This document shows, one piece after another, positions 1,183 to 1,805 of a stretch of DNA of 9,492 bases. Positions within the stretch are counted from its first letter, which is position 1, and each line of letters begins with the position of its first letter. This stretch comes from a virus (Duplodnaviria > Heunggongvirae > Uroviricota > Caudoviricetes). The translations under genes and the position numbers were made by a program. Under the pieces are notes generated by a model. The model saw only the letters and a program-made list of their open reading frames with translations. It was not told where the DNA came from and ran no database searches. The stretch is taken from IMG/VR virus record IMGVR_UViG_2526164691_000020. The stretch is one strand, 5' to 3'.

Positions 1183-1314
1183 CTACAGCAATACCACAAT
1201 GCCGCAGACCAGCACCCCATCCGCCAGCACCGACATGATTCTGCTGGTGAAATCCACCATCACCACCAGAAACAGCAGGAGTGCAGCCACAGCCAGGCGC
1301 AGTTTTACCGTCAC
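1183..1314 (-). CDS. Small hydrophobic protein (43 aa, predicted single transmembrane helix), translationally coupled to the upstream TerB-like frame
   Basis: GTG start (complement of 1312-1314) overlaps the TerB-like stop in a GTGA junction; SD GGAGAA sits 6 nt upstream. Translation VTVKLRLAVAALLLFLVVMVDFTSRIMSVLADGVLVCGIVVLL, stop TAG at complement of 1183-1185. Too short for the ORF track. Confidence 0.4.
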   Translation of the reverse strand: MTVKLRLAVAALLLFLVVMVDFTSRIMSVLADGVLVCGIVVLL

Positions 1315-1805
1315 AGGTGATTCTCCAGACGAAGACCCAGAACACCGGCAATCTCTTCCAGCACCTTGCGCTCTTCCGGCTCAATTTCGCCGTCTGCCTC
1401 CGCAATGGCCACCGCCACATCCAGCACATCTTCCGCTTCACGCGTATCGTGTTTCACATCCTCGATCTCACGTAACGCCGCACGACGACCAATTTTAAAG
1501 TTCGTATCCAGCTGACCGATAATGGTTGCGCTAATCGCATTAATTTCTGACGTAAACACGGACAGCGCAGGCTGATTACGCAGTACCTGTTCGATCTTCG
1601 CTTTCTAGGAAGCCTCACATTCACCATCTGCACAGGCCACCAGGTAGGCAGCATTAATAACCGCCTGTGCCAGATCGCGTTTCTCAAACTTTCCTTTTCC
1701 GGTTAACGTGACACACCAATAACTCTTGTCGAAAAAGCCAGCAAGCTGAAAGACCGGTATTCACAACCACCAGCGCGTTTACTGTACTGGCGTGATTTCA
1801 GTCAT
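1311..1805 (-). pseudogene. TerB-family (tellurite-resistance TerB-like) gene interrupted by three in-frame stop codons
   Basis: One frame runs from ATG (complement of 1803-1805) to TGA (complement of 1311-1313) with in-frame TAA (1779-1781), TGA (1761-1763) and TAG (1605-1607). Conceptual product ...GFFDKSYW...AAYLVACADGECEAS*KAKIEQ...VAIAEADGEIEPEERKVLEEIAGVLGL resembles TerB (MSFFDK... / ...SDG...E..K...EIA..LG). The track reports only the 82-aa tail (1311..1559). Confidence 0.6.

Follow-up and report, generated by a model that had tools for sequence, protein, structure and literature searches.

A probably inactivated copy of the phage accessory pair tciA-tciB in a defective lambdoid prophage

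The DNA analyzed here is a stretch of 9,492 nucleotides (nt) from IMG/VR virus record IMGVR_UViG_2526164691_000020, which is referred to below, at its full length, as the window. Its minus strand carries, in 5' to 3' order, RusA, the late antitermination gene Q, a hairpin, a reading frame of the TerB family, an open reading frame (ORF) of 43 codons, the small RNA (sRNA) STnc100, and nanS-p. Our subject is the TerB frame together with the small ORF, which belongs to the DUF3927 family; the presence of both families is confirmed and lies far above chance. Judging from their sequence relationships, the two genes are almost surely a copy of the phage accessory pair tciA-tciB, which was first named in phage P1. 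This copy is very probably inactivated, and the locus is in all likelihood a late-operon site at which a defective Qin-like lambdoid prophage of O26-lineage-like Escherichia coli has retained a decayed tciA-tciB pair. The features of the pair itself are as follows.

1311..1748, minus strand: tciA pseudogene (TerB family), placed by Pfam TerB, DNA alignment to the intact copy L003, and the intact protein
1323..1326, minus strand: GGAG Shine-Dalgarno sequence for tciB, within the last tciA codons and 8 nt before the GTG, read from the sequence
1183..1314, minus strand: tciB (DUF3927), truncated 43-codon allele, placed by Pfam DUF3927 and PHROG 1470
1147..1182, minus strand: former tciB C-terminal tail (PVIKRNSLHNA*), now untranslated, placed by comparison with P0200 and the O157 allele

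The frame that runs from 1805 to 1311 reads MTEITPVQ*TRWWL*IPVFQLAGFFDKSYWCVTLTGKGKFEKRDLAQAVINAAYLVACADGECEAS*KAKIEQ...LENHL*, and with its stops masked it matched Pfam PF05099 with a score of 44.2 bits (cut-off 24.4; E 2.8e-11) over positions 2-109 of the 118 in the profile. The intact TciA protein aligns to the solved TerB 2JXU over residues 13-137 (E 4e-8), and its AlphaFold model is all-helical and of good confidence, with a predicted local distance difference test (pLDDT) score of 87 and a predicted template modeling (pTM) score of 0.81. Thus, the TerB-family assignment made for this frame in a preliminary description of the DNA was borne out, but the 164-amino acid (aa) product that it proposed from the ATG at 1805 was not. 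This ATG was rejected as the tciA start, as it abuts the T-run of a terminator, is followed by two early in-frame stops, and yields no homology to the N-termini of intact copies. Intact tciA encodes 143 aa with the N-terminus MLGIFKKKTRRASAEIKKFEKRDL. Firm homology to the intact copies starts at KFEKRDL (1691), and a weak similarity can be followed back to ~1748 (CAG CTT GCT GGC TTT TTC GAC AAG versus ATG CTT GGA ATC TTC AAA AAG), where the remnant begins. The first ~19 codons from 1805 fall outside of the tciA gene, and the position of the ancestral start codon, 1748-1746, is now CAG. The sole in-frame stop inside the real tciA, which ends with the TGA at 1313-1311, is a TAG at 1607-1605. It stands in place of a GAG in intact copies and falls upon Glu46, a family-invariant residue in both 10 diverse TciA/TerB proteins (A2) and 28 closer homologues (A4). 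Intact relatives carry two acidic D-G-x5-E motifs, D39/G40...E46 and D117/G118...E124. With a TAG at E46 and its start codon lost, the window tciA has neither the intact frame nor the two complete motifs that are a feature of the TerB family. In RefSeq, the tciA of the matching DEC9B locus is labeled 'tellurite resistance TerB family protein' and flagged 'internal stop'.

The 43-codon ORF matched both Pfam DUF3927 (PF13064; 45.6 bits where the cut-off is 25, E 6.8e-12, over positions 2-41 of the 53 in the profile) and PHROG 1470, 'TciB-like' (E 1.6e-21), and RefSeq annotates it at the DEC9B locus as a 'DUF3927 family protein'. As described earlier, its product is hydrophobic (grand average of hydropathy, GRAVY, 2.0) and the ORF has its own coupling signals: the GTG start (1314-1312) overlaps the TGA stop of tciA (1313-1311) to form GTGA (1314-1311), with the GGAG at 1326-1323 located 8 nt upstream. 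The intactness that had been implied for this ORF is contradicted by a TAG at 1185-1183, which stands for the conserved Trp44 codon, TGG, that is present in the O157 allele. The O157 allele continues WPVIKRNSLHNA to 55 aa, while the window read past the TAG gives PVIKRNSLHNA*. Intact TciB proteins are 54-55 aa long and very hydrophobic (GRAVY ~1.4 for the full-length 54-aa protein), with a conserved Asp21, a conserved Asp32-Gly33, and a [W/F]P..K tail; the Asp residues are conserved within the membrane stretch, all ten of the diverse TciB sequences keep the tail, and alignment A5 shows no variation at P45. The hydropathy profile of TciB consists of two hydrophobic stretches, 7-20 and 33-47, split by the D21-D32 segment. 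The window tciB ends at the Trp position and is devoid of both the full-length 54-55-aa form and the C-terminal [W/F]-P-x-x-K.

The suspicion that this copy is inactivated therefore held, with several lesions in its favor. Given the lost tciA start, the nonsense codon at the invariant Glu46, a tciB cut at Trp44, and a prophage ridden with insertion sequences (IS), the tciA-tciB module of the window is almost certainly dead. The frequency of each allele was determined by megablast of 41-mers against 5426 complete E. coli genomes; each 41-mer was centered on its polymorphism, so that the 28-base word of megablast must include the polymorphic base.

tciA TAG (nonsense): 961 places in 576 genomes, with a maximum of 5 per genome
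tciA GAG, matching 41-mer: 164 places in 159 genomes, a lower bound for intact alleles
tciB TAG (43 aa): 112 places in 96 genomes
tciB TGG (55 aa): 2752 places in 650 genomes (per genome, median 5 and maximum 8)

The window is a combination of a widespread tciA nonsense allele with a minority truncated tciB allele. As both the tciA nonsense allele and the 55-aa tciB allele occur in multiple copies per genome, these counts suggest that identical cargo segments have spread among co-resident lambdoid prophages through recombination. Other variants also circulate in E. coli, among them a 57-aa TciB with a 3-residue VVM duplication (P0131, 443 contigs), as well as TciA-TciB frameshift fusions and a TciA with a frameshifted N-terminus, MESSKRKPAERLRKLKKFEK... 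(P0004, P0064, P0019), and so many variant forms point to frequent decay of the module. The fusions of TerB with DUF3927 (P0004 and P0064) were considered as 'Rosetta stone' evidence and were set aside, as their junctions are frameshift products of the overlapping genes and are represented by 1-5 sequences.

The identity of the pair rests upon a tblastn search of intact TciA against 50,697 phage records, 132 of which were matched. The identities were 41% for P1 tciA, 51% for P7 terB, and 95% for tciA of Escherichia phage JLK-2012, whose tciA/tciB genes are 95-98% identical to the intact E. coli pair; intact copies encoding 143 aa plus 54-55 aa do exist, which the preliminary description had proposed to look for by the same type of search. 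Intact TciA matched PHROG 632 ('tellurite resistance', E 8.8e-69) and intact TciB matched PHROG 1470 (E 1.6e-24). P1 TciB (MVIKARL...VDFTSTILSVLSDGALV...WPILK) aligns with the window ORF, and the alignment comparison indicated that the small ORF is homologous to P1 tciB; the opposite outcome was looked for and was not found. DjlA was the only NCBIfam match, covering residues 108-159 at 24.4 bits against a cut-off of 162, and the 143-aa protein has no J domain. No partner genes of the Bunzi or Shango systems were found near the pair. The pair is named tciA/tciB in the GenBank record of phage P1, and the record of phage P7 describes both genes as similar to the O157:H7 prophages CP-933R and CP-933P. 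Since these records name the pair, Pfam and PHROG families cover it, and RefSeq annotates the locus, the pair is not the undescribed system that it had been taken for. It is already catalogued, has carried annotation for some two decades, and is correctly labeled at the window locus in public annotation.

The breadth of the pairing was assessed from the 132 GenBank phage matches together with an inspection of 12 TerB-bearing loci. A TciB-like ORF of 50-59 aa starts -7 to +5 nt from the TerB stop in 10 of the 12, namely in P1, P7, two lambdoid E. coli elements, the FDAARGOS copy, Klebsiella phage 5 LV-2017, Actinobacillus pPE4, the N4-like Salmonella phage SP-058, Pantoea phage LIET2, and the Erwinia jumbo phage ChrisDB. 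In Pseudomonas phage Zuri, TerB is followed by another membrane protein of 67 aa. A scan of IMG/VR with a narrower alignment returned only E. coli-type relatives of at least 91% identity and was used for synteny; among these close relatives (80 loci), the GTGA overlap is present in 68 of the 72 loci that were parsed, the remaining 4 being variants missed by the filter. Full-length TciB is 54-55 aa at the IMG/VR loci, and the 43-aa form occurs just twice. The co-occurrence of the small partner with TerB was thus confirmed in both sets. It should be noted that E. coli 13E0767 has a stand-alone DUF3927 gene (L098 1638-2625) with a replaced N-terminus and a TTG start (LFYKLCLL...). This gene is located between Q and a holin gene and follows an unrelated 247-aa polytopic membrane protein rather than TerB; it is possibly a recombination scar or, alternatively, evidence of another partner. 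We also observed that tciA-tciB repeatedly lies in or beside the tRNA clusters of unrelated phages: Asn, Thr, and Ile in P1 (L004 1616-3276); Asn, Thr, and Gly in JLK-2012 (L005 4599-5593); Trp, Cys, Tyr, Gln, Ile, and Met in Erwinia ChrisDB (L007 886-3277); and Ile, Arg, and Arg in the lambdoid copy (L003 3528-4543). The window contains zero tRNA genes.

The surroundings of the pair in the window include the following features.

3108-2728, minus strand: RusA gene
1929..2750, minus strand: gene for a Q-type late antitermination protein of 273 codons, upstream context
1879..1906, minus strand: possible PR'-like promoter, with TTGATT (1906-1901), a 16-nt spacer, and TAAGTT (1884-1879), a candidate picked by eye
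1806..1830, minus strand: tR'-like intrinsic terminator, a GC-rich stem of 7 bp (1830-1813) with a T8 run after it, from a terminator scan
950..1139, minus strand: STnc100 sRNA homologue directly downstream of tciB (Rfam RF02076, 131 bits, E 2e-29)
888..949, plus strand: AgvB anti-GcvB sRNA homologue (Rfam RF02702, 96.5 bits, E 2.9e-18)
1..740, minus strand: 5' part of a SASA carbohydrate esterase gene of the nanS-p type, which comes next in the late operon, from RefSeq at the matching DEC9B locus

Intact copies in E. coli are mostly found after Q and a tRNA cluster of either the Ile2/Arg/Arg or the Asn/Thr/Gly type, in some cases together with a gene for a DNA methyltransferase, and they precede nanS-p and the lysis genes, in what we take to be the position occupied by stx in Stx phages. 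One study places stx downstream of Q under pR' (PMC6266700). The proposed slot past Q and a terminator was recovered, both in the window (hairpin 1830-1813) and in intact copies, which lie between the tRNAs and nanS-p. Terminator-like hairpins flank both the window pair and the intact copy L003, and a consensus scan, which has limited sensitivity, detected no coding-strand promoter-like site upstream of either one; the candidate at 1906-1879 scores under the threshold of that scan. These flanking terminators and the absence of a detected coding-strand promoter fit with Q-dependent expression, consistent with the late transcription that had been proposed. The sigma-70 promoter of its own that is a feature of lambdoid morons was found neither for the window pair nor for L003. 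Several further features were observed in the window. Terminator-like hairpins lie near STnc100 and AgvB (982-961, 863-842, and 924-943). An Rfam match to sok, the hok/sok antitoxin RNA (99 bits, 8373-8544, minus strand), has a remnant of IS2 on one side and one of ISEsa1 on the other. The annotated hokD (~4905-5060) is ~3.3 kb away, and no hok is annotated beside the sok match in DEC9B, the genome that matches the whole window at 99.8%. The IS2 and truncated ISEsa1 transposase genes (8844-9492 and ~7230-8279, converted coordinates) flank the part with relBE-hokD-flxA-ydfV, which confirms a defective, IS-disrupted Qin-like prophage.

What the intact pair might do can be approached from the literature on TerB. 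TerB proteins are described as membrane-associated or amphitropic, DjlA combines a transmembrane helix with a TerB-like domain, and the defence systems Bunzi, Shango, and Dionysus, for which 'membrane surveillance' by TerB has been proposed, each contain TerB. Two reports (PMC12054061, PMC11003894), citing Turkovicova 2016, describe a TerC-TerB complex. Together with a soluble TciA bearing two D-G-x5-E motifs, an extremely hydrophobic TciB with conserved intramembrane Asp residues, the conserved translational coupling, and an occurrence in both lytic and temperate phages, this background leads us to suggest, tentatively, that TciB anchors TciA at the inner membrane and that the complex guards or monitors the membrane of the infected cell. 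In such a scheme, Q-modified RNA polymerase would read through tR', so that both genes would be transcribed in lytic growth, and translational coupling would yield TciA and TciB in matched amounts. TciB would then insert into the inner membrane and hold TciA at its cytoplasmic face, in what may be a pared-down equivalent of the TerB-TerC unit or of transmembrane TerB proteins such as DjlA. By sensing or buffering membrane or ion stress, the complex could allow the infected cell to withstand depolarizing insults until lysis, such as those from a superinfecting phage, pore-forming colicins, or host abortive-infection pores. It is similarly conceivable, although doubtful, that the intact pair is a self-contained module of a TerB sensor and a 54-aa membrane protein that serves as a superinfection-exclusion or anti-abortive-infection device, working at the inner membrane in lytic growth and mechanistically related to the TerB of Bunzi, Shango, and Dionysus. 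Such a module would be common to temperate and strictly lytic phages that infect Enterobacterales, and in enterohemorrhagic E. coli it would take up the late-operon site of stx.

A number of observations weigh against these proposals or against a complete loss of function in the window. The physical contact between TciA and TciB in this scheme is putative, and the AlphaFold monomer of TciB is predicted to be one 52-residue helix, which does not settle between a hairpin and a single span. When TciB was considered as a TerC fragment or mimic, a hidden Markov model built from ten TciB sequences gave negative bits against Klebsiella TerC with filters off, and this candidate was rejected. Searches of TciA and TciB against PADLOC-DB v2, whose models do not include Dionysus, returned only a weak PDC-S48 match for TciA (E 0.0025) and none for TciB, and an assignment of the pair to a known defence system was rejected. 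In two of the inspected loci, those of Sinorhizobium phiM5 and Vibrio D505, TerB stands without a TciB-like ORF. According to its GenBank record, the P1 pair resides in the early, C1-controlled ban operon, so a 'late function' is not universal. CRISPR interference in P1 found tciA, tciB, and tciC to be non-essential (PMC10695390), and beyond this non-essentiality no experiments on TciA or TciB function were found in the literature; the only other data are reported changes of the tci transcript in an hfq mutant. Published work otherwise offers a homology-based label, a view of the genes as possible morons, and the variability of the operon across P1-like plasmids, while the single paper naming DUF3927 places it beside a 'tellurite/colicin resistance' gene in pSLy3-like phage-plasmids. 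Finally, the 43-aa TciB has its own RefSeq protein accession and, judging by its sequence, residual activity is possible.

Several other explanations were weighed against the anchored-sensor proposal. TciB could instead be the effector, a membrane-disrupting peptide resembling a holin, antiholin, or type I toxin that tunes lysis timing or kills, with TciA as its cytoplasmic regulator. Its small size (54 aa), hydropathy, and conserved intramembrane Asp would suit such a role, the pair is directly upstream of the holin and endolysin genes in lambdoid, Klebsiella, and Actinobacillus phages, Dionysus joins a TerB-like protein with a pore-forming toxin, and the stand-alone DUF3927 of 13E0767 adjoins a holin. 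We nevertheless consider this unlikely, as TciB matched DUF3927 and PHROG 1470 only and no holin or toxin family, the pair is away from the lysis genes in P1 and N4-like phages, and knock-down of the non-essential P1 pair had no plating phenotype. An arrangement in which the intact pair is a lysogenic-conversion determinant, which would give resistance to tellurite or metals as the ter operon does and favor the lysogen over the phage, appears quite unlikely. TciA is a full-length TerB homologue, many records label it 'tellurite resistance', and the authors who described D6-like plasmid-prophages view tciA/tciB as possible fitness morons, but terC, terD, and terE are all absent beside the pair, whose neighbors are Q, DUF3927, sRNAs, and nanS-p, whereas published minimal tellurite-resistance units include TerC and TerD. 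Moreover, the pair sits behind tR' without a promoter of its own, so silence would be expected in a lysogen, and it is also carried by N4-like and jumbo phages. Such phages are regarded as strictly lytic and hence as having no lysogens.

The intact pair might also act in counter-defence, as a membrane-bound TerB decoy against Bunzi, Shango, Dionysus, or Ter-mediated phage inhibition. TerB domains are indeed parts of validated defence systems, and the pair is found in lytic phages including jumbo phages, which are targets of Dionysus, yet the argument is purely by analogy and TciA matches none of the available PADLOC models of TerB systems; we regard a decoy role as very unlikely. The least credible explanation concerns the remnant itself, which would still work in a reduced form if an 82-codon ORF starting from GTG 1559, which covers the C-terminal half of TerB and retains the second D-G-x5-E motif, acted together with the 43-aa TciB. 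Such an ORF (1311..1559) does exist, the TAG allele is very widespread and occurs in multiple copies (961 places/576 genomes), and the 43-aa protein has the RefSeq accession mentioned above. Against this, GTG 1559 has no GGAG-like Shine-Dalgarno sequence, the fragment would be missing about half of the helical bundle as well as E46, and the high copy number is accounted for by recombination among the lambdoid prophages of enterohemorrhagic E. coli (EHEC). In addition, the differences that separate the window from the O157 copy downstream of the TAG, although few, comprise among others the non-synonymous V>A, I>T, and H>Y, a pattern that relaxed selection would be expected to produce.

Overall, the preliminary description is partly supported: its family assignment, coupling, slot, and inactivation were right, and its claims of novelty, of a 164-aa product, and of an intact small ORF were wrong. 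The window itself carries little weight, being a pseudogene pair in a defective prophage. However, tciA/tciB ranks among the most common cargo pairs that EHEC lambdoid prophages carry between Q and the lysis genes, and the pair recurs, tightly coupled, in very different phages. What interest remains concerns how the intact module functions. As TerB domains are appearing in validated anti-phage systems, this two-gene phage version could be a tractable model of TerB at the membrane.

Among the known systems close to the window copy is the intact lambdoid/JLK-2012 pair (WP_001304604.1 + WP_000216690.1), which occupies the same slot from Q to nanS-p with ~90% DNA identity over the shared part. These intact copies have the ATG start, GAG at codon 46, a 54-55-aa TciB, and mostly tRNAs upstream, all of which the window lacks. 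The tciA-tciB(-tciC) genes of P1 and terB-upf69.4-upf69.6 of P7 share with it the gene order, the stop/start abutment, and the PHROG families; their TciA is 41-51% identical to the intact E. coli protein over its full length, their TciB shares the motif VDFTS.I.SVL.DG.LV...WP..K, and tRNA genes lie near both the P1 pair and intact lambdoid copies. In P1, tciB (54 aa, MVIKARLILALVFLVLSVLVDFTSTILSVLSDGALVAVAVTLVWPILKTASKDQ) is followed by tciC, a 35-aa membrane ORF that P7 also has, whereas no tciC-like ORF follows tciB in the window or in the lambdoid copies; furthermore, the P1 pair belongs to the C1-repressed ban operon instead of being late and Q-dependent, and in the window the pair consists of pseudogenes. 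TerB of terZABCDE (2JXU) is homologous over nearly the whole length and shares the helical fold and the two acidic motifs, at ~22% identity. The gene after terB in the ter operon also encodes a membrane protein, but this is TerC, which is polytopic, 346 aa long, and without detectable similarity to TciB. DjlA and YebE/DUF533 have a TerB-like domain at the cytoplasmic face of the inner membrane, and weak DUF533/DjlA profile matches fall upon the second acidic motif of TciA. Their anchor is N-terminal and part of the same polypeptide, with an added J domain in DjlA, whereas tciB, if it is an anchor, is a separate downstream gene. Bunzi, Shango, and Dionysus combine a TerB domain with membrane-embedded partners, as is proposed for the tci pair; these systems are bacterial, comprise several genes, and include further enzymatic or pore-forming parts, whereas the tci pair is phage-borne, including in lytic phages.

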